Positions 11,778 through 63,165 of a DNA stretch of 64,000 bases are shown here, in pieces. Source of the stretch: a virus (Duplodnaviria > Caudoviricetes); IMG/VR virus record IMGVR_UViG_3300021400_001580, positions 25,281-89,280 of that record. The stretch is one strand, 5' to 3'. The first letter of the stretch is position 1. Each line of letters starts with the position of its first letter. Position numbers and translations under genes: made by a program. A model generated the notes under the pieces. That model did no database searches. It was not told the origin of the DNA and saw only the letters and a list, made by a program, of their open reading frames with translations.

Positions 11778-14700
11778 TACTCCACCACCTCAACTCGTTC
11801 CGTCTGGAACTCTAAAGTTCCATCATCATGTATTGCTGTAATTTTAGAAATTACAGGATAAAAACTATCTTTCCGCTTTTTAGGAATAAAGTCACTTTCG
11901 CGCCTGATTCCCTGAACCATTAACAATGTACCTCTGGAGAACCAGCTCTTTTCCAAAGTGTGTTTGTGACCATCTGATCCAACTTGAGAAATCTGCTTAT
12001 CAAACATTGCATACTGATTTTTATATACTTTAACATTAACTACGCCTGTCGGGGTTAATAATGTTACAGTATTCTTCATTTTATTCTTATCAATAACTGT
12101 GCCAATAATTCGTCTTAACTTATATACTCTAACTTCATTACCGTCTTTACCATTAAAAGTATAATCTACTTCTGGCTCTTCCGGTAGTTTAAAGAAATTA
12201 TCATATAGATATTGAGAATTAGCTAATTCATGTGGATGGCTGTAAAATGAAACAGATTCCATTTCCCAATGCGATATACTACCTGCCGCGTATTTATTAA
12301 ACATTTCATCATATAATGCTTTGTTTAGCTTATTCAAGACTTCTTCTTTATGCCCTTTTAAGTACGCACGCATCGGATCCATACCTCGTTGATATAGATT
12401 ATCCCACACTGTTGCGGAAATAGTTATACCATTTGAAATATAGTCCGCACTGAAATGATTAGCAATAAAGTTAATAGCTGCATCATTTAATTGATAATTA
12501 TCAACTTTCTTTTGCTGCTTTAAAAACTTATTAAATAAGAATAACTTTTTACAAAAAATAAGCTCATCTGGAATTAAATTATAGTTAATAAGCATTTGCA
12601 TATTCTGTAATGTTAATCTTTGTTTCTTATCAGCTATCATACTAATATATGTTGCCATAATTTCTTCACGAGGCAAATCTACTAATTCATCAAATGCTCC
12701 GCATTTAATTAAGTTAGACATTTGAATCTTGTTTACTTTAACTCTATCTATGAAGTCTTGGACTGAATGAAAAGGTCGCTTGGAGATGATTTCCTGAATG
12801 ATGGAAGTTGAGAGTCTTGTAATTCCTCGTAGACCATACAAGATTTCATTTCGTTCAACAACTGGGGTGAAAGTATAAGATGAGCTATTGATATTCGGTG
12901 GGGAAACCACAATTCCATAAGTACTGAACCGTCCGATTGCGGAAGCCACTTTGCCGTAATCGACCGTTTTTGTTTTTTCTTTCTTTTTATCTTCTCGTTC
13001 ATCTGCGCTAGTAGTTTCATTTTCTTCCTCCCATTCTTCTTGCTCTTCTTCATCAAGATCTTCATCAGGTTCTGCTTCAACTACCAAAGATGCTTCACCG
13101 TCTTCATCATATTCAACAGTCTGAATACCACCGCTATCTACAATAAGATTTGCGGTATTCCAGAATATAATAGGGAAGAACCGAGCAAGATTCATTTCTT
13201 GTAATGCAACCATTGAGTACGAATACGTGTGTGCCGCATTAAATCCATATCCGCGACTCAATGCAATCTCAATATTCCATACATAATTACAGAACTTTTC
13301 ACTCAATCCTTTTTCTTTTACATTATCAAAGAATTGTTTTGTTAATGCATCATACTCTTTAGGATTCTTTTTTGCTATAGATTTTCTTAATTTATCTGCA
13401 AACTGTAAGTCCCAGCCGCCGCATTCAGGTAATTGAACCAACTGCATAAATTGTTCTTGTGTGATTGACATACCATCAGAAATATCTAATTCACGATGCA
13501 TAATCTTACGTTCTTCATCTGTAAGACCCATCTGAATCATTTCTTTATCCCAATCTTGCGGCTGCGCCCTAAATCGTGCATATTTGTCCAACGGACTTTC
13601 TGCGCCTTTTTCAGTTGCCATTAAGCGGATAACTGAATTAAGAACCGCAAGTTCGTCAACACTACGTGGATGCGTTAATGCGATACCACGCACACCACTT
13701 TGTTGTTCCATCTGAAACAAAGATACGATTTCATGATTTTGAACCATATCCCACATTTTCTTATCGTCACGATTTATCTTATAAACTCCAAGCGCATTTT
13801 CATACGTTTCTCTAAGATTCTTACCAACTTTAATATATCCTTGTTCACTCAATAAATCTAGACATGTATGAATCTTATCGGCTGCTTCAACGCTTAACAA
13901 GTCCATCTTAATCATTGAAACATCTTCAAGGTCATGTAGCTCAAACTGAGTAATGATTGTACCATCAGGTGCGCGCATTAATGCACTTGATTCTGTAAAA
14001 TCTTCATCTGTAAATACAACGCCGCCCGCGTGAATACCCTGGCCGCAAATCAAACCTTCAATTCTTTGAGCAACTTCCCAAAGCCCAGGATGCTTATTAA
14101 CTTCATTTATAAAAGTTTGATTGGGCGGGATTCCATTTTCTTCATCGCCATAATAAGTTTGCTTTAATGTATAAACCTGACCACGCTCTGCTTGAATAAG
14201 ATTGGAAATATAAGATGCTTCATCGTTATCTATACCTAAGCCGCGACAAGCTGTTTGAATTGCCGACTTAGACTTTTCTGTCTTAAAGGTTGCAACATTT
14301 GATACTCGGTTTTCTCCATATACCTTTCTCAAATGTTCCAAAGTCTGTGCTCTACGAACGCCCTCAATATCAACATCAATATCAAGTACAGAAACACGAG
14401 CTGGATTCAGAAAGCGCCAAGGATATGTCTTCGTCTTTTCACGCAAGCAATTAATCTGAATAATATCAAGTGCATAAAGTAATACGAATCCCATACCAGA
14501 TCCGCGCGCCGGCAATACAATCGTTCCTGCATTCCAACATTCATCTATAATCTTCTGTAGATTTAAGAAATATGCTGACCATTGCGCTTTATTTACTTCT
14601 GAAGAAACCCAAGTCATTTCCAGGCATTCATTTAATGCTTTATATGCTTTTTCATTTTGAAGATCTTCATGCTTTTTAATGCCATCTATTACTGCAAAAA

Positions 14701-44335: not shown

Positions 44336-46771
44336 TTATAAATTTGCGTTTAATATTTTAATAATGTCCAGCATGCCAGCGAGAAAAGTAATGTTTACAC
44401 TTACCGACTTTTTATTATAGTTAAATGTCTGACTCCATTGCTCTTGGGCAGTAACTATCTTTTCTTTTTTGCCTTGCTTATAATGCTCGCCTACCTATAA
44501 TGCTCTATTAACTGGATTAACAATTTCTGCATGTGAACCATTACTGATTTTATCAAAAGCGCTTGTACCAGATAATTTGTCTAATTGTAATATAGAAAAT
44601 ATTTCAGTTAATTTATTATAAGTTAACTATAATATGAATGATGAAGGATAATAAGTACCATTTAGATAATATAAATGTAAAAATTTACTACTATTGTTCG
44701 CGTCTAAATGATATTTTTCTCTTATCTATTGATTTAAATATACAGCTTGCTATCCAACATCATCAAACATGAGCATAACAGCAGCAGTCGTTAAGAAATG
44801 TTCAATTGGCTCTTTGTATTGTGATCCCATAAGTGCTGTACCAGAATTATATATAGTAAAAATAAGCCATTCTTTGTCAGGTAAATCTCCGCTGTTTAAT
44901 CCTCCATATTCAAATAATTTATATATATTATTTATCTAATTTTCTACTGTACCACCCAGTGAGCCACCGTGAAAGCCCTTACTACTATCATACTTATTGT
45001 AGCTTTTAACAGTGGAACCAATTTGGACATTATTCTTTAAAGCACTTAAAATCTATTCAATCTCTGTAGTTTTTATCTTGGCTTTTTCTAATATTTTTCT
45101 TACATTGATTAGTTCCTATTCTTTAATTGCGAGACGGCGCATAGTTTCAGCCTCAATAGAAAATTCTTTAGCACTAAAATGATTTGTTTTTCTAAATGCA
45201 GTTTCATCGAATGATAAATTAGAGGTATCAATATTAGAATCCTGTATGTTTAAAGTATTAATAAAACTTTGAGTGATTGTATTAGCAATTTTTTTCCATG
45301 GTATATTACCTTGATTAATCTTAACTTGTGCTATTTCAATACCGCTTACATCAGCTTTTTGTGTTCCAAAGGTTAAAATAGTTTCACCAATACGACCATC
45401 CTATAAAATTGCTTGAGAAATACCTATACGGTTAATAGATTCTGAAACGATGTTATCTTTTGCTGCAATATTGACTGTTATTAAAGGCTGATTTTCTAAT
45501 TGCTAATTAATAATATTAGCCATTTTATTCCAATCATATTTTCCTTTTACTTTTAAACCTTCTTTTGGAAAAGACTCTAATAAGGCTTTATATACCTCTT
45601 CTCTACCCCAGGCTATAGTATTAGAAACTGAAGTCTTTTGACGGTTATTTAATACAGTCTATAGCAAATCTATTATTTCTGGACCTAAATTATCTAATCC
45701 ACCATTATTATTAGCACTTACTTGTGTTTTTTCATCATAGGCTCGAATAATTCTATCATTACCATATTTTAATCGTTCACTTTGCGACATTAATTCTGAA
45801 TAACCTTTCATTAAATCATATATTTCAGAACTTTCAATTTTTTCTTTGGCAGATTTTCCTGGCATTGATTCAATTTTAGCTATAAATTGTTTAACTAAAG
45901 CCTGTTTATTTTCGCCACTTAATTTATAATATAAATTAGTATTCTAATTATTTAACATATCAATTATAACTGGAGTAGCCATTTTAGTAAAATTTAAAAT
46001 AAGTTCGGAGGTAAATTCTTTTTGGAAATTAGCCAGGCCATTATTCATCACGTAAGGTAAAATTTTTTCTCTAAAATCAATTGACTTCCATAATTGATTA
46101 AAAAGAGATTTAAATTCTGCCTATATTGTATTTGCAAGCGTTTTTGTATTAAAACCAAAATCTTGTTCTTCTTTAGTTAGCCAACCTTTTTTCAATCCGA
46201 CTTGTAAAAAATTACTAAAAGCAGCGTAGTAGTTTACATCTTTTTGTTCCATTCGTTGATTCTTCTTATCAAAAGTATTAATAGTATAAGTACCATCTTC
46301 ATTAGCATTATAATGTTTTTCAAATTTACGATATAATTTTTCTAGTTCCGACAAGCGATGAATTTCAAAATTTAAACTTTTTTTATATGCAAGCGCTCCA
46401 TCATAATATTCATTAATTAAATTAATGAAATCCTTATAATTTATAGTTGTGCCACCAATAGCTTTTTTACAATCATCACGTAATTGCTATGGCAATTTAC
46501 TATTATTTAAAATATTAATAGTAAAATATTCTCTTTCACTGCCTTGTTCAGCTTCAATCATTCGTTTTAAAAAATCCATCGCATTTTGAATTATGCGAAA
46601 TCCTTCACTATCTTTCTCTTTAAAATTTATCTAGGCAGCATGACTACCTAAAACACTTTCAACGGCACTCCCCAACTCGGTTTCTTTTAATGAATTAAAA
46701 AAGAAAAAACGATCAGAAGAAGATACATCAGATTTAGGAAAATACATATCAAAGTAATCTCCGTTAGCCAT
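44336..46771 (-). CDS. Large orphan protein (811 aa, ~14 TAG read through; only fragments in track)
   Basis: RBS GGAGGT + ATG 46771; open to TAA 44336 except for TAGs; track ORFs 46121..46354 and 45659..45865 are in this frame; very AT-rich. Confidence 0.8.
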
Positions 46772-47839: not shown

Positions 47840-49069
47840 TCATCCATGATACTTTAGCAGAAAGCTGTTACTTACCGCCTTAAAGGACTTAGTGCCATCA
47901 GTAGAACGGAATACAATCCCTTCACGCGGCTTATCATCTTTTATAGAATCACCGTCTGCATATGCAAGAATAGCATCAACATTTTCAAACTGATTTATTT
48001 TCATACGAGGTTCAAGCACAGGTACACAAGGCACATCATATTCTGAAAGAATCTTTAGCATTTCCAGAGTGCCAACGCGACCTTTAGAAGAAAAAATCAA
48101 GTTAAAGGCAGCAAAATCACGTCCAGTCAGAGAATAATCGCGCTTCTGCACCCCTTCGCCATAAGTTTCGCCCTGGATAGTGATCCAATCTTCTTGCGGA
48201 TACTTTTCTAGCATCTTGGAAAGTACTTCAAAGATATTATACTTCTTTGCCATTTCCCAATATACATTGGTGTCATAATAGCAAGGCTTATTTTCTTCAC
48301 CAAAGCAAACATTACGAGAACATACGTAAAAGTTCTTTTTGCCAAACTTCCCGCGCTTCATAGTAAAGGTAGTGCTAGTACCATCGAGCTTCTCAGTGGC
48401 CACCCAGTCACCGGAGTCTTCCAATATCCACGGCATGTTCTGCACACGTTCTTCGTCAGTCTTAGATACCCAAGACGGCCATCCATTCTTCTGATCCTTT
48501 TTCTTACCAAAGAAGAAAAACATAACTTTACGGCCCCATTCATGACGCATCATCCAACGCGCCCAAGGCTTTTTAAAGATGTCGGGATGCCGCTGAGCCA
48601 TTTTCTTATACTTATCTACTGGGGCAGCCTTACGCTGATTATCTTCATCATCGGCATAAGTTACGTCAAGTTTCTTGGTCAGGAAACGAGATTCATTATC
48701 AGGATAATAACGTTCTTCGGTTTGATTGTTATAAATATACGGAATATTTTTTCCTTCGTCTATATACCAGTCCCAACCAAAATCAGACGGATGCATAAGC
48801 AAACCCTGAGAAATGGTTTTGCACATCTTCAAAGTCTTAACTTTGTAATTGCGCTTCTCAAGGAAAGCAAAACATTCCTTATCGGAAGGAACGCGAGAGT
48901 CAATCTCGAAATAAATAGCGGGATCGCCTACTTTAAATTGGCCCTTCTGCACAATTACACGCCAACCGCCGACAATCGCATGCTCTACACGGTCATAGCC
49001 AGGAATCGGTTCAATGCCGTCAATTAGAACTACGTATGCGAGTTCACGTTCTTGATCCTTATTCAGCAT
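47840..49069 (-). CDS. ATP-dependent RNA ligase (Rnl2/DRB0094-like)
   Basis: N-terminal IEPIPGYDRVE...YFEIDS; KTDEERVQN, ATEKLDGTS, QGETYG, FAAFNL, REGIVFR, FKAVS..FLL. Confidence 0.9.
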   Translation of the reverse strand: MLNKDQERELAYVVLIDGIEPIPGYDRVEHAIVGGWRVIVQKGQFKVGDPAIYFEIDSRVPSDKECFAFLEKRNYKVKTLKMCKTISQGLLMHPSDFGWDWYIDEGKNIPYIYNNQTEERYYPDNESRFLTKKLDVTYADDEDNQRKAAPVDKYKKMAQRHPDIFKKPWARWMMRHEWGRKVMFFFFGKKKDQKNGWPSWVSKTDEERVQNMPWILEDSGDWVATEKLDGTSTTFTMKRGKFGKKNFYVCSRNVCFGEENKPCYYDTNVYWEMAKKYNIFEVLSKMLEKYPQEDWITIQGETYGEGVQKRDYSLTGRDFAAFNLIFSSKGRVGTLEMLKILSEYDVPCVPVLEPRMKINQFENVDAILAYADGDSIKDDKPREGIVFRSTDGTKSFKAVSNSFLLKYHG

Positions 49070-52600: not shown

Positions 52601-54094
52601 TTAGATCACGGAGAAAATGGCACGATAGCGATCACTTTCAAGCATTTCAAGCATCATTTCGACACCATCTTTTCCAGACAGTACTCCTTCAAGGGCACTC
52701 ATTGAAAAGCCGCTACAATATGAGAAACCGGGGCCAATTGCAGGAATATTATTCTGACGCGAATCAAGATTCCAGAAAATCACACGCGGAGCAGAATAGC
52801 CTGCGGCTTTCCATTCACGCGCTTTGCGTTCAATCAATGTATCAATTTCTGAGCGCTCAATGGTAGTATAATTCCATGAGCGCGGTCGACTATTGTTCAT
52901 CATGATGCAGTGGTCGAATTCCATGTCACTAAAAATATAAATTGTTTTTGGCATTTCTGCATCCGAGACATGATTACGTTTAGCAGTATTTAATAGTAGA
53001 TCAAATACGGCTTCAATATTAGTATTCTGGCCCCAATCAGCGTTTTCAGCACGAATAAATTTATCGTAGATATCAACGCCTTCAAACTCTACCAGTGTAG
53101 GAGCGGAGCTAAAAGTAATAAAATGATTCTGAAAAGGACCACGCCCGCGCTCTGCGATATAAGCGCCCATAGAAATTGCGGCCTCTATTGGTAAACCATA
53201 CATACTACCGCTTACATCGACAACAGCAATACCAGGTTCTTCGCGCCCGCCGTAATAATCTTTAAGATTATCCCAATACTTCTGCCAAGCCTGGCGCTCA
53301 GTAGCAGATGGGGTGCGCCAAGTTTCATAACTAAGAATCTGATGTGCAATTTCTACCGGGGTTAGTACGGAAGCATTAACTTTAGTATTCTTATTCGCCA
53401 TAAATTCAGCGTATCGCGCACGAATCTCTTCACGGCGCATAAAGGCGCTTTTATAAAGGAGCCCGGCGCGGGCAGGAAGATGCTCGAATGCAATTTCATC
53501 CCAACGGTTCTGGCTCATAAGGGTTTCGACAAGATTACATGCCTTACGTCCCTCAGAAAGCATCTTACGGTATTCACGAGGGGTCATATTAAAAGCTTCA
53601 CGTGTTTTGCGCGCGAAGCGCTTTGAATCCTTCGAGGAACAGTTTTCACTCTTTAGCCACTTATACACCAGATGGTCTTCATTCTGATTAATCACCTTAT
53701 ATAGATAATCAAACATTTCATTTTCACATGGCGTATTTTCTAGTACAAACAAGTCATCATAGCGTCCATACATGGCAACATATGGAATAAGATGAATTGC
53801 CTCTCGCTCATATTCCTGCGCGAGCCACTTATAGCAAACACGGAAGAAGCGTCGTTCGCCCGCGCCGCCGCGTGCGTCGCGCAGATAAAATAGACACTTT
53901 AGTGCAAGAGTTGCATCCTCTTCATATGCCGACTTAAACATAAGAATTACATCTTTGTCTGAGCGAGTACGCATAGAACCGCCCATAGCGAACATATCTA
54001 ACACTTTGTTTAGAGTTGATTTATGAGTAATAGCAGAATTTTCTGTAAAAGTGTAATTACTTTCCTTTTTCATTGCATTCAAAAAATCATTCAT
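52601..54094 (-). CDS. DUF2828 / TROVE (Ro60-like) protein with vWA domain
   Basis: FTENSA...LDMF...ALKCLFYLRDARGGAGERRFFR, YGRYDDL, vWA VVDVSGSM, FITFS, NTN, IFSDMEFD, FWNL, SGFS. Confidence 0.85.
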   Translation of the reverse strand: MNDFLNAMKKESNYTFTENSAITHKSTLNKVLDMFAMGGSMRTRSDKDVILMFKSAYEEDATLALKCLFYLRDARGGAGERRFFRVCYKWLAQEYEREAIHLIPYVAMYGRYDDLFVLENTPCENEMFDYLYKVINQNEDHLVYKWLKSENCSSKDSKRFARKTREAFNMTPREYRKMLSEGRKACNLVETLMSQNRWDEIAFEHLPARAGLLYKSAFMRREEIRARYAEFMANKNTKVNASVLTPVEIAHQILSYETWRTPSATERQAWQKYWDNLKDYYGGREEPGIAVVDVSGSMYGLPIEAAISMGAYIAERGRGPFQNHFITFSSAPTLVEFEGVDIYDKFIRAENADWGQNTNIEAVFDLLLNTAKRNHVSDAEMPKTIYIFSDMEFDHCIMMNNSRPRSWNYTTIERSEIDTLIERKAREWKAAGYSAPRVIFWNLDSRQNNIPAIGPGFSYCSGFSMSALEGVLSGKDGVEMMLEMLESDRYRAIFSVI

Positions 54095-54508: not shown

Positions 54509-55117
54509 TCAAATAATAGAAGTGTATGGATAAGTATCTTGCGGCTGAAGTGCTATCGGTAGACGCCCAATTTCTTCCCAACGCTGACGAATATCTGTGA
54601 TTACTTCGTCAATATGCACTGGTGTGCAATTATGAGCATCCATGCCTACATCGTACATGAAAGGATTACGTGGATCGATCCAAGGTTTCCTAGAATGTAC
54701 ATGCCCATGAAGGCTTAATACATGTTCGCTGAAATGCTTTTGGTCATAATTGCTCGTAAGCGTGGGGTAATGGCTCATATAGATAGAAAGTTTATTATAT
54801 TTAAACTGATGAGCATATCCTAGTGCAATCACATTAGGAAGCGAGCCAAGAAGCTTTTTACGTATATCACTATCGTGGTTGCCCCAGGTAATACTAATCT
54901 GCCCATTTAGTCGCTTAAAACATGCAAGGCCATGTGCGCTATCATTGAGCATAACGTCTCCAAGGTGTATTACCATGTCCTCTGGCTTAACCACTTTATT
55001 CCAATTTTCAATAATAGCTTCATCCATTTCTTCTACAGAAGAAAAACCTCTGGGTTTCCAAAGGAACTCGGGCTGATGCCCAAAGTGGGTGTCACTAGTT
55101 ACGAATATCTCACTCAT
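54509..55117 (-). CDS. Calcineurin-like metallophosphoesterase
   Basis: TSDTHFGH, HLGD, WGNHD, SHYP, LHGHVH. Confidence 0.9.
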   Translation of the reverse strand: MSEIFVTSDTHFGHQPEFLWKPRGFSSVEEMDEAIIENWNKVVKPEDMVIHLGDVMLNDSAHGLACFKRLNGQISITWGNHDSDIRKKLLGSLPNVIALGYAHQFKYNKLSIYMSHYPTLTSNYDQKHFSEHVLSLHGHVHSRKPWIDPRNPFMYDVGMDAHNCTPVHIDEVITDIRQRWEEIGRLPIALQPQDTYPYTSII

Positions 55118-55132
55118 AGGTGATTGTCTCCT

Positions 55133-55600
55133 TTACACACAGCAAATATCTACTATACGTTTATCTTCCTTCATATCGGGCATACGAAAATTATTATACA
55201 TCGTTTGAATCGCAGTTTTTGGTACACGTGCACGTCCTGTACGCGCTTCGTTATGCTTTAAACAAGTCTTTAAATTAGTTTTAAATACAATATACATGAT
55301 AGAATAATTACTAGTGTAGTTATCAATAGCATTGATAAGCTTTTTGCGCGAGCACTCATTTAAATGAGTCGCGTCAGCAATTACATCTTTGCCGTTTCTA
55401 AGCCCTTCAACGATGGTAGATACGAAATTTTTAAAAGTTTCTTTTTCATGCGCAAAGTACTCATCGGCATCTTTCATCATAGAAAAACGAATGGTGTCAC
55501 GAGACACATAAGTAATTTCAGGATGCTCCTTAATAAATTCTTTCGCCCAGGTAGTTTTACCACTTCCGCTTGGTCCGCACAAAACATAAAGTAACGGCAT
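55133..55600 (-). CDS. AAA_33 / polynucleotide 5'-kinase-like P-loop protein
   Basis: LCGPSGSGKTTWA, SRDTIR, IADATHL, HNEARTGRARVP; promoter at 55625-55653. Confidence 0.85.
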   Translation of the reverse strand: MPLLYVLCGPSGSGKTTWAKEFIKEHPEITYVSRDTIRFSMMKDADEYFAHEKETFKNFVSTIVEGLRNGKDVIADATHLNECSRKKLINAIDNYTSNYSIMYIVFKTNLKTCLKHNEARTGRARVPKTAIQTMYNNFRMPDMKEDKRIVDICCV

Positions 55601-55654
55601 TCTATCCTCTCCTTTCATACATTAATTATACTCTAATTTTCGATAAAAGTCAAA

Positions 55655-58796: not shown

Positions 58797-58910
58797 TAGA
58801 CAGCTTCATAATTAATTGCTCTACCAACTGAGCTACTTCTCCAATGGAGAAGATTGGATTTGAACCAATAACACATTACTTCTATGTAAGCAAACTGCTG
58901 TAACTGTCTA
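58797..58910 (-). ncRNA. Circularly permuted tRNA-mimic RNA with YrlA/Y-RNA-like topology
   Basis: Minus strand 5' TAGACAG-TTACAGCA...TAAT-GTGTT-[ATTGG TTCAAAT CCAAT]-CTTCTCC-ATT-GGAGAAG-TA-[GCTC AGTTGGTA GAGC]-A-ATTA...G-CTGTCTA 3'. Order: T arm, capped acceptor stem, D arm, inside a 7-bp terminal stem. Confidence 0.8.
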
Positions 58911-60219: not shown

Positions 60220-60768
60220 TTAGGGCCATTCTCCAAGCGGCATTCCGAGACCTGCACGTACAACATGGGTATTATAGAATACACCCTCAGTTGCAGGCCC
60301 AGTTAGAAGCTCACTAGCAATTGTCTCATATAGGGTACTAATTACTCCGTGGCAGTCATTTAGATTATCCGCGGCAAACTGTACTACACAGTTATTAAAT
60401 ACAACGTAGGTAGTACCAATCCACTGGTATCCCTCTTCCGCAGGACACACAGAATATGCGTAAGCAGGGTTCTTGGCAAAAGCAGTATCAAATAGTTCAA
60501 CCTTACTTGTGAAAGCACGATTGCTGGGCTCACCATCAACAATTACCTTTAGTGTAACATTGCCAAATTTAACTTCTTCAGGTAGAATCTGTAGAAGAGC
60601 GGCAACCTTATCTCCGTTATTACAAGCAAGAACAACTGTAGGATGCTCGCCACTAAAGTCAACATTGAAAGCAATCTGAGGGTCACCGTCAAATAGCGCT
60701 TCTAGCTTGCGTATTACGAGAGTCCAAGGTGGAAGAATCTTTAGTCTCGGTTCATTCATATAATAGGT
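60220..60768 (-). CDS. Hypothetical phage protein
   Basis: RBS GGAGGT + MNEPRLKILPPW. Confidence 0.75.
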   Translation of the reverse strand, partial: TYYMNEPRLKILPPWTLVIRKLEALFDGDPQIAFNVDFSGEHPTVVLACNNGDKVAALLQILPEEVKFGNVTLKVIVDGEPSNRAFTSKVELFDTAFAKNPAYAYSVCPAEEGYQWIGTTYVVFNNCVVQFAADNLNDCHGVISTLYETIASELLTGPATEGVFYNTHVVRAGLGMPLGEWP

Positions 60769-61537: not shown

Positions 61538-61610
61538 CAGAAATACAGGATTTGTTTCCTAGGTGCACCGAGTATTAAGTGAAATAGCGTCTCATCACTC
61601 CTGTATTCGT

Positions 61611-61842
61611 AATGGCGTAAAACCCCAAACTAGCCATCATCGCGTCCGGCCGGACCGCATGTTTTCTGCCTTGAACCCGCTATCCCGCATGGTTGGCAAG
61701 GATTACATTCTTGTTTAGGGAACTTTCCCAGAGTCAAGAAACACTCTGTGCCGAAGTTCATCGAGCACTGGGACCAGGACCTCGCAGTCAGCCCCAACGG
61801 CGGTTTTTCGTCATGCTGGACTTTTTTTACCTAGGCGCCATT
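61611..61842 (-). ncRNA. Candidate ~230-nt pseudoknotted RNA
   Basis: Terminal AATGGCG..GTAAAA/TTTTAC..GCCATT; crossing helices AGTCCAGCAT/ATGATGGCT and CCCTAAAC/GTTTGGGG; several internal hairpins. Confidence 0.5.
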
Positions 61843-62079
61843 CATTTAACTCATTTAGTTATATTTATAAGTTGTTGCTGTGCGCGCCTATTTAATTAAT
61901 TGCACTTTACTTCGCTTCTTTATATACCGTTTTCCGCTAAGCCACATATCATTGACTCCCTCACGCCTTTGGGCTGAGATTTCCATTTAGGTCTACAGTC
62001 AAATGTCGGTGGTAGTTTAAGTGCTAAATTCGTGTTAACGGTGGATTGCATTTATTACACGCCGTGCATCCTGGCGTAC

Positions 62080-62586: not shown

Positions 62587-62746
62587 CGGCTCCTGTAGGA
62601 CTCGAACCTACGACGCTTCGGTTATTGGAAAATATGAGATTTGCACTCATCCTTCCGGCTGTATGGGCGCACCATTGCCTCCAGTATGCTACTAACCACA
62701 TTCATTTTCCACAGCCGAATGCTCTAGCCAACTGAGCTAAGGAGCC
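62587..62746 (-). tRNA. tRNA-Asn(GTT)-type body interrupted in the anticodon by an 86-nt tRNA-shaped insert (62625-62710)
   Basis: GGCTCCT/AGGAGCC, D arm GCTCAGTTGGCTAGAGC, TTCGG-CTGT[insert]TAA-CCGAA, GTAGG-TTCGAGT-CCTAC, G73. Confidence 0.8.
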
Positions 62747-63094: not shown

Positions 63095-63165
63095 ATGCTC
63101 TCAGAGGATTCGGACCTCATTTCCGCTTTAGCGGGCGGCGTTTTCTCCATTAAACTATTTGGGCA
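63095..63165 (-). pseudogene. Degenerate tRNA with possible CTA (amber) or GCT anticodon
   Basis: D arm GTTT-AATGGAGA-AAAC, CCGC-CCGCTAAA-GCGG (8-nt loop), GAGG-TCCGAAT-CCTC; acceptor only 4/7 paired. Confidence 0.45.

Follow-up and report, generated by a model that had tools for sequence, protein, structure and literature searches.

In a phage from the rumen, a tRNA-Asn(GUU) gene occupies positions 62746-62587 on the minus strand, and its anticodon is interrupted by 86 nt that are themselves shaped like a tRNA. The stretch of 64,000 nucleotides analysed here (the window) forms the right-hand end of a virus record of 89,280 bp that is approximately 50% complete. The Rfam tRNA model aligns to precisely 62587-62746 (50 bits, E 1.5e-8) and places a large insertion within the anticodon loop. 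This loop reads CTGT[86 nt, 62710-62625]TAA, the gap being located between anticodon positions 35 and 36, and removal of the insert in silico generates a 75-nt tRNA that ARAGORN calls as tRNA-Asn(GTT), with a score of approximately 120 (median of the intact tRNAs of the clade, 116). The spliced tRNA carries the discriminator G73, and its CCA end is not encoded. A nearly identical tRNA-Asn without interruption, at locus L169, fixes a single excision register, at 35/36. Two other registers were considered: the His call returned by ARAGORN for the split gene (GTG register) is ruled out by G73 and by this uninterrupted homolog, and an Ile register (GAT) by the homolog and the discriminator. A second Asn tRNA was not found in the contig, which ends 1.25 kb upstream of the gene. 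The parts of the gene, all on the minus strand, are as follows.

62711..62746, minus: 5' exon of tRNA-Asn(GUU), with the acceptor 5' strand, D arm, anticodon stem 5' strand and loop nucleotides 32-35
62625..62710, minus: tRNA-shaped insert, 86 nt, between 35 and 36; same-site copies 94-97% identical in L195 and L196
62704..62710, minus: inner acceptor stem, 5' strand; its first base is the insert boundary and the inferred RNase P site
62686..62701, minus: inner D-arm-like hairpin (4 bp, 8-nt loop, G19/A21 equivalents), from constrained folds of L195 and L196 and inferred for the window copy
62651..62684, minus: irregular middle hairpin and linker, replacing the anticodon arm, without a 7-nt anticodon loop
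62634..62650, minus: inner T arm (5 bp, 7-nt loop), with G53-C61, C56 and purine 57 kept and G at 55
62627..62633, minus: inner acceptor stem, 3' strand, partner in the 7-bp stem
62625..62626, minus: insert tail AA, 2 nt, forming a CAA end with inner C72
62587..62624, minus: 3' exon of tRNA-Asn, with loop nucleotides 36-38, anticodon stem, T arm, acceptor 3' strand and G73

An earlier reading of this DNA, made from the sequence only, had described an intact tRNA-Asn body, an 86-nt insert in its loop, and an inner 7-bp acceptor stem stacked on a T arm of 5 bp and 7 nt; sequence, Rfam and ARAGORN bear out all of these, and the presence of a tRNA-shaped insert in the anticodon of tRNA-Asn is real. 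The inner acceptor and T stems form 12 of 12 pairs, a geometry found in a fraction of 5e-5 of insert shuffles, and in L195 an A-to-G change in the acceptor stem retains the pair as G.U. Two details of that reading required revision. The segment CTGGAGG, proposed as D-loop-like, gives way to a better D arm at 62701-62686, whose G19 and A21 equivalents lie at canonical spacing, and the CAT triplet of CC-CAT-AC, proposed as a degenerate anticodon loop, is more likely one strand of a small predicted helix. The insert has no 7-nt anticodon loop, and the inner tRNA is not called by ARAGORN at either the default or the 90% threshold. Energy minimisation of the insert favours, by 3.6 kcal/mol, a long rod that lacks the T arm, and the probability of the T arm in folding is 0.01 for the window copy versus approximately 0.43 for the homolog in L196; because the energy fold favours the rod, it is comparison, and not folding energy, that supports the T arm.

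Boundaries and spread of related inserts

Related inserts were sought in 69 loci gathered via a neighbouring conserved gene, from source phages of up to ~190 kb in a clade of 130-190 kb. The boundaries of each insert were set from the nearest intron-less tRNA, without reference to inner structure, and 40 distinct inserts of 43-116 nt were kept; L099, from another phage group, was excluded from later counts, leaving 39 inserts that form 22-29 sequence clusters. They interrupt nine types of host tRNA, namely Asn (14), Leu, Lys, Gln, Ile, Trp, Thr, Glu and Pro, and are located after position 34 (21), 35 (14), 32 (3) or 36 (1). With the first base of the insert taken as the start of the stem, at least 11 of the 12 acceptor and T-stem pairs are present in 32 of 40 inserts; with the register shifted by 1-3 nt this number falls to just 0-2 of 40, and the corresponding frequency in shuffles is 7e-4. 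Once the inserts are collapsed to 22-29 clusters, every representative forms six or seven of the seven acceptor pairs, versus 13-15% for swapped partners, and up to five standard pair types occur per position in the insert stems. The expectation that related phages retain such inserts with covarying stems is thus substantiated, by pair-type and partner-swap tests on 39 inserts.

Conservation is concentrated in the elbow: G53-C61 is retained in 39/39, C56 in 35/36 and purine 57 in 36/36, while U54/U55, the D arm and the anticodon arm drift or vanish and the linker varies from 8 to 81 nt. The elbow of a tRNA is read by both RNase P and RNase Z (PMC4810234), and the conserved part of the inserts, as judged by sequence comparison, is the portion of a tRNA that these two enzymes read. 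In addition, the 5' end of the inserts corresponds in geometry to +1 of the inner acceptor stem, the position of RNase P cleavage; the RNase P-like 5' site that had been suggested for the window copy therefore coincides, as regards geometry, with the insert end across the family (32/40). Excision at this +1 boundary yields, in nearly all cases, an exact 7-nt loop and the anticodon of the homolog.

The 3' boundary follows a different rule. The tail past inner position 72 measures 4 nt in 28 inserts, 2 nt in nine and 1 nt in two (n=39), and since these lengths differ, no single ruler gives the 3' junction. The final three bases are CCA in 23/39 and CAA in 10/39 (33/39 together), with C at -3 in 37/39; in the 2-nt-tail class, to which the window copy belongs, the C of the CAA end is inner position 72 and is paired. 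A cut by RNase Z after the discriminator would miss the junction by one base and leave an 8-nt loop in tRNA-Asn, a caveat raised beforehand and verified on the window copy. A canonical RNase Z cut consequently fails as the 3' junction here and in 37/39 members, a 1-nt tail being present in just 2/39. Long-tail and short-tail inserts share one cluster in L127, L130, L151 and L167, which suggests, from sequence, that the 2-nt tail arose from a 4-nt tail by a 2-nt deletion that kept the CAA end; the 2-nt tail is seen again across 5-6 clusters, and three phages with different hosts have it without change. The 3' cut would thus appear to read the C-(C/A)-A end. Cleavage directly after CCA is known for the RNase Z of T. 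maritima, of archaea (methanogen) and of B. subtilis (PMC7479834), and also for RNase E (PMC5291269); a literature search found no cut after CAA with a base-paired C.

The tRNA bodies that carry these inserts are well preserved. Spliced hosts have a median score of 118 and a minimum of 108, and an intact copy with the same anticodon accompanies only 2 of 51 split genes within the fetched locus (<=20 kb). Inserts also move between tRNA bodies. Same-site copies of the window insert are found in two metagenome contigs (L195 and L196; 94-97% identity), and in L195 the insert is identical to that of the window at 81 of 86 positions, as are 22 nt around the site, while the outer exon parts match at 15/20 and 21/31 and the host acceptor and T stems have been replaced with compensatory changes; this pattern, read from sequence, is that expected from transfer by recombination or homing. 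Inserts of 80-89% identity occur in different tRNA types, a free-standing, anticodon-less tRNA-like gene in L129 (~11965-12040) is 75% identical to the tRNA-Gln insert of L174, and the tRNA-Asn of a different phage (L032) contains, at this very site, a complete tRNA-Gly with its CCA end. Because split hosts score like intact tRNAs and inserts move between bodies, an inactive recombination relic, as had also been proposed, is unlikely, and the window insert is probably a functional member of an intron class. It is possible to envisage that such inserts arose by capture of a matured tRNA-like RNA into a broken anticodon loop, and that they persist by interrupting endonuclease target sites in tRNA genes, both of which we regard as probable. 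Genes for PD-(D/E)XK endonucleases are present in related tRNA clusters, either free-standing or within anticodon loops, one of them 88 nt from a split tRNA; a PD-(D/E)XK_5 endonuclease was not found in the window's own contig, in a search that had no positive control and covered a genome that is 50% complete.

Searches beyond the clade were less productive. Most matches to a general pattern in IMG/VR were tandem tRNA pairs, and only L032, L088, L099 and L111 proved to be real inserts; scans specific to the insert yielded either nothing or sequence unrelated to it (L121-L125, L197-L199). In GenBank phages no copy of the insert was found, blastn matching exons only, in a family too divergent for a test of homology with the introns of Lak phages.

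Other insertions in tRNA genes were encountered alongside this family. Those of L088, L099 and L111, in tRNA-Asn of other phage groups, are at the same site and do not obey the +1 rule, the tRNA-like top half lying 27-29 nt past the 5' boundary, behind an extra segment. Another class comprises inserts of 460-650 nt, located after anticodon position 36 and consisting nearly entirely of a PD-(D/E)XK endonuclease gene (PF11645). They have no room for a ribozyme and no T arm; their ends form a long stem, their last 3 nt pair with the anticodon, and the host exons are intact. As these inserts lack a T arm and yet occupy the same loops of intact-looking hosts, another removal route may exist in these phages. 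Finally, inserts of 175-726 nt that end in G, in CTA-suppressor and Leu(TAA) tRNAs, resemble group I introns, of which they are candidates.

L170:5554-6090, L190:12849-13385, L184:13802-14338, L127:5878-6420: PF11645 inserts
L164:10960-11512, L145:4480-5033, L173:12457-13202: PF11645 inserts, continued
L130:1172-1434, L144:15832-16098, L134:9088-9434, L150:11538-12349 and others: inserts ending in G

Phage enzymes and the proposed route of removal

Two sets of genes encoded by the phage could take part in the joining of tRNA halves.

47840..49069, minus: ATP-dependent RNA ligase (PF09414 and PHA02142 OB domain, DRB0094/Rnl2-like), candidate sealing enzyme
54509..55618, minus: polynucleotide-kinase-like P-loop protein and adjacent metallophosphoesterase (end-healing pair)

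The ligase, whose presence the sequence-only reading had announced, is indeed encoded there and appears intact, with the KLDG motif I and nucleotidyltransferase motifs III-V. A homolog is present in 4/4 complete relatives, one of them weak, that is in 5/5 genomes together with the window's own. The suggestion that this enzyme seals the tRNA halves stands as regards its existence, while its link to the intron, suggested by co-occurrence, is putative. RNA ligase and kinase are common tRNA-repair genes of large phages, for which reason their presence constitutes weak evidence; the kinase/phosphoesterase pair, in turn, is needed only if cleavage leaves a 5'-OH or a cyclic phosphate. An RNase Z-like protein (PF12706), RtcB, a CCA-adding enzyme, RNase III, EndA and RNase P RNA of types A and B were not found in the window's own half genome and four complete relatives, in searches with positive controls, so that cleavage would have to be carried out by host enzymes or by a protein not recognised as such. 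The host would in any case have to supply 3' maturation, as CCA is not encoded in the outer tRNA.

The insert differs from the tRNA introns that have been characterized. Group I introns occur in the anticodon loops of bacterial and phage tRNAs, such as tRNA-Leu UAA and tRNA-fMet with I-Ssp6803I, and the present inserts share with them the loop, the mobility and the PD-(D/E)XK endonucleases in the same clusters; however, 86 nt is too short for the catalytic core (P3-P9, usually >200 nt). No Rfam intron family is matched by the insert at E<=5, and although a U precedes the 5' site in the window, the last base is A; over the family, the last base is G in 0/39, and the U is found in 20/39. Group II features (domain V, the six-domain ribozyme, GUGYG/AY ends) are absent from the window insert. 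Archaeal and eukaryotic tRNA introns, processed by EndA/TSEN and RtcB/Trl1 at a bulge-helix-bulge (BHB) motif, are likewise short, protein-dependent and located in the anticodon loop, and are cut and then ligated as is proposed here. In the phage gene, in contrast, the site lies inside the anticodon and not at 37/38, the signal would be the intron's own tRNA shape, and genes for EndA and RtcB were not found in the complete relatives; the junction is a helix with a single 1-nt bulge, without the 3-4-3 BHB arrangement, and its geometry varies across the family. Size, Rfam, ends and junction fold thus all agree with the earlier claim that this is neither a group I or II nor a BHB intron.

Protein-dependent tRNA splicing is regarded as a feature of archaea and eukaryotes, and the tRNA introns of bacteria are self-splicing. 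The tRNA mimics known to us mature an RNA end, with no ligation of the flanks afterwards, and the phage tRNA repair that we know of follows attack by a nuclease, not removal of an encoded insert; the likeness to T4 Pnkp/Rnl repair is that a phage ligase would rejoin anticodon-loop halves. As in tRNA mimics for RNase P and RNase Z, the top half of a tRNA would act as the cutting signal (PMC4810234). The nearest published case is that of the Lak megaphages, whose tRNAs contain ‘enigmatic’ introns, one of them possibly encoding a tRNA (Devoto et al. 2019, PMC6784885, Fig. 4, Table S6); a 2026 survey reports the same for recoded jumbo phages, with tRNA introns in 77% of genomes (PMC13037316). A boundary rule, a family and a mechanism are absent from both papers, and literature searches for the mechanism of phage nested tRNA introns found none. 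Lak-type inserts are similar in that they lie in the anticodon loop, have intron-less alleles in relatives and are themselves tRNA-shaped. They differ in that a complete inner tRNA with an anticodon, also present in the relative L032, is absent from the window insert, and in that the inserts described here have an Asn host in a clade of 130-190 kb phages, +1 and C-(C/A)-A boundaries, and a 2-nt tail. The window insert therefore belongs to a barely described class of introns, from whose published case it is distinguished by the lack of an anticodon and by the 2-nt tail.

These observations lead us to favor, with modest confidence, a functional, mobile intron that mimics a tRNA and does not splice itself, its removal from the RNA being due to proteins or RNPs. 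The precursor would expose the top half of the inner tRNA, with its acceptor stem on the T arm and its elbow. Host RNase P would cut at the inner +1, leaving a 5' exon that ends at U35 with a 3'-OH, and a second endonuclease, possibly a CCA-reading RNase Z or an activity of the RNase E/G/Y type, would act immediately 3' of the C-(C/A)-A end, which is CAA in the window copy, so that U36 would carry a 5'-phosphate. These two ends could then be joined by the ATP-dependent RNA ligase of the phage, generating tRNA-Asn(GUU).

The alternatives assign other meanings to the tRNA shape. A dedicated splicing endonuclease, unrecognised as yet and of phage or host origin, could read the anticodon arm and the stem-closed insert and cut at both ends, with kinase, phosphoesterase and ligase healing and sealing the products and the tRNA shape serving as a docking signal or surviving as a trace of origin. 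This would explain the variable tails, the stem-closed PF11645 class without T arm, and the presence of a phage kinase and phosphoesterase that are superfluous for the RNase P route. We nevertheless judge it unlikely: an EndA-family gene was not found in the four complete relatives, insertion after 32, 34, 35 and 36 leaves no fixed host ruler, and the exact +1 rule and the conservation of the elbow are what RNase P reads. RNase III cuts leave a 2-nt 3' overhang with 5'-P and 3'-OH, so that a staggered cut of this type could free the 2-nt-tail inserts, including the window copy, in a single step from a long helix formed by the host anticodon stem, the loop and the inner acceptor stem. The freed insert would indeed bear exactly this overhang, and in its minimum-energy fold the gene forms a rod that runs almost without a break through the junction. 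Such a rule, however, fails in 30/39 inserts; even among short-tail clusters the junction is near-symmetric in only two of six (the others have 3 vs 6 nt), and short-tail inserts retain the T arm and are closely related to those with 4-nt tails (L127, L151, L167), which makes this mode of release very improbable.

It could also be argued that the gene is not spliced at all. The insert might be a dead remnant left by accidental ligation or recombination, or a selfish element propagated by homing, in which case the phage would depend on the host tRNA-Asn; to this reading we assign a low probability. Phage tRNAs are usually dispensable, and capture of a matured tRNA would by itself yield +1 and CCA ends. 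The 2-nt tail, which resembles a deletion from a 4-nt tail, could mean that the window copy is damaged; against this, it recurs in 5-6 clusters and is constant in three phages with different hosts. Spliced RNA was not observed in four metatranscriptome assemblies, in which only 8-10% of words are shared, the middle of the insert is uncovered and no joint appears at the site. The hosts, however, are still top-scoring tRNAs with compensatory stem changes, and the inserts have lost D and anticodon arms and yet keep 12 paired positions with covariation. Finally, the unspliced RNA might itself be functional: it could act on anticodon nucleases or on defences that sense tRNA, as a double tRNA mimic or decoy, or serve as the source of the inner tRNA-like RNA. 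The free-standing anticodon-less homolog of one insert and other tRNA-like RNAs in the cluster, such as a YrlA-like element, are in keeping with this, but the exact 7-nt loop and the homolog's anticodon after +1 excision would be left unexplained, and it is the option to which we attach least weight. The sequence-only reading had also raised a conditional or anti-anticodon-nuclease tRNA as a possible role.

Should the favored reading of a tRNA-mimic intron hold, phage RNA ligases would gain a routine role beyond repair, and the 2-nt-tail copies would demonstrate that it is sequence, and not distance, that guides the 3' cut. It would follow that tRNA finders miscall such genes (His for Asn here, Thr for Asn in relatives) and that the minimal removable cassette is 43 nt. 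Whether tRNA-mimic introns, host maturation nucleases and a phage ligase amount to a further route of tRNA splicing, carried by small mobile elements without a protein of their own, we consider an evenly balanced proposition. The boundary rules reduce the question to a small in vitro experiment on a 160-nt RNA, for which the window copy is useful, its 2-nt tail separating rival models of the 3' cut.

Neighbouring elements of the tRNA cluster

The late region of the genome is recoded at TAG, coding density rising from ~0.2 to ~1.0 under code 15. Relatives encode CTA suppressor tRNAs; the window's own contig has no more than a weak tRNA-like element, at 63096-63164 on the minus strand. A frame of 811 aa (44336-46771, minus), beside the ligase region, is open only under code 15, with 14 TAG codons, and Pfam and PHROG searches with it gave no match. 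A protein of 179 aa from the tRNA cluster (60223-60759, minus) is 62-93% identical across the clade and has 813 distant representatives. Its model (pLDDT 91) displays two small alpha/beta domains, and it was tried as a candidate nuclease; it has no family match and no Foldseek match, and fold comparison gave Z <=3.4 (Z 5.5 with a first, poorer model).

Several elements on the same strand appear to be structured or conserved RNAs. The segment at 61885-62050 (minus) is a conserved non-coding element, present in 27 related loci and without an Rfam match; similar pieces, which may stem from other organisms, are covered at high depth in RNA assemblies from the rumen. At 61600-61856 (minus) lies a structured RNA of ~240 nt, whose 5' part matches cow-rumen-3 with 46 bits, below the gathering score, and whose 3' extension is conserved in 15 related loci; an RNase P-like identity was rejected for it, RNase P models being unmatched. 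The YrlA-like RNA is located at 58811-58877 (minus; 38 bits, below the gathering score), and a DUF2828/DUF7788 protein is encoded at 52601-54094 (minus), near the RNA-repair genes.
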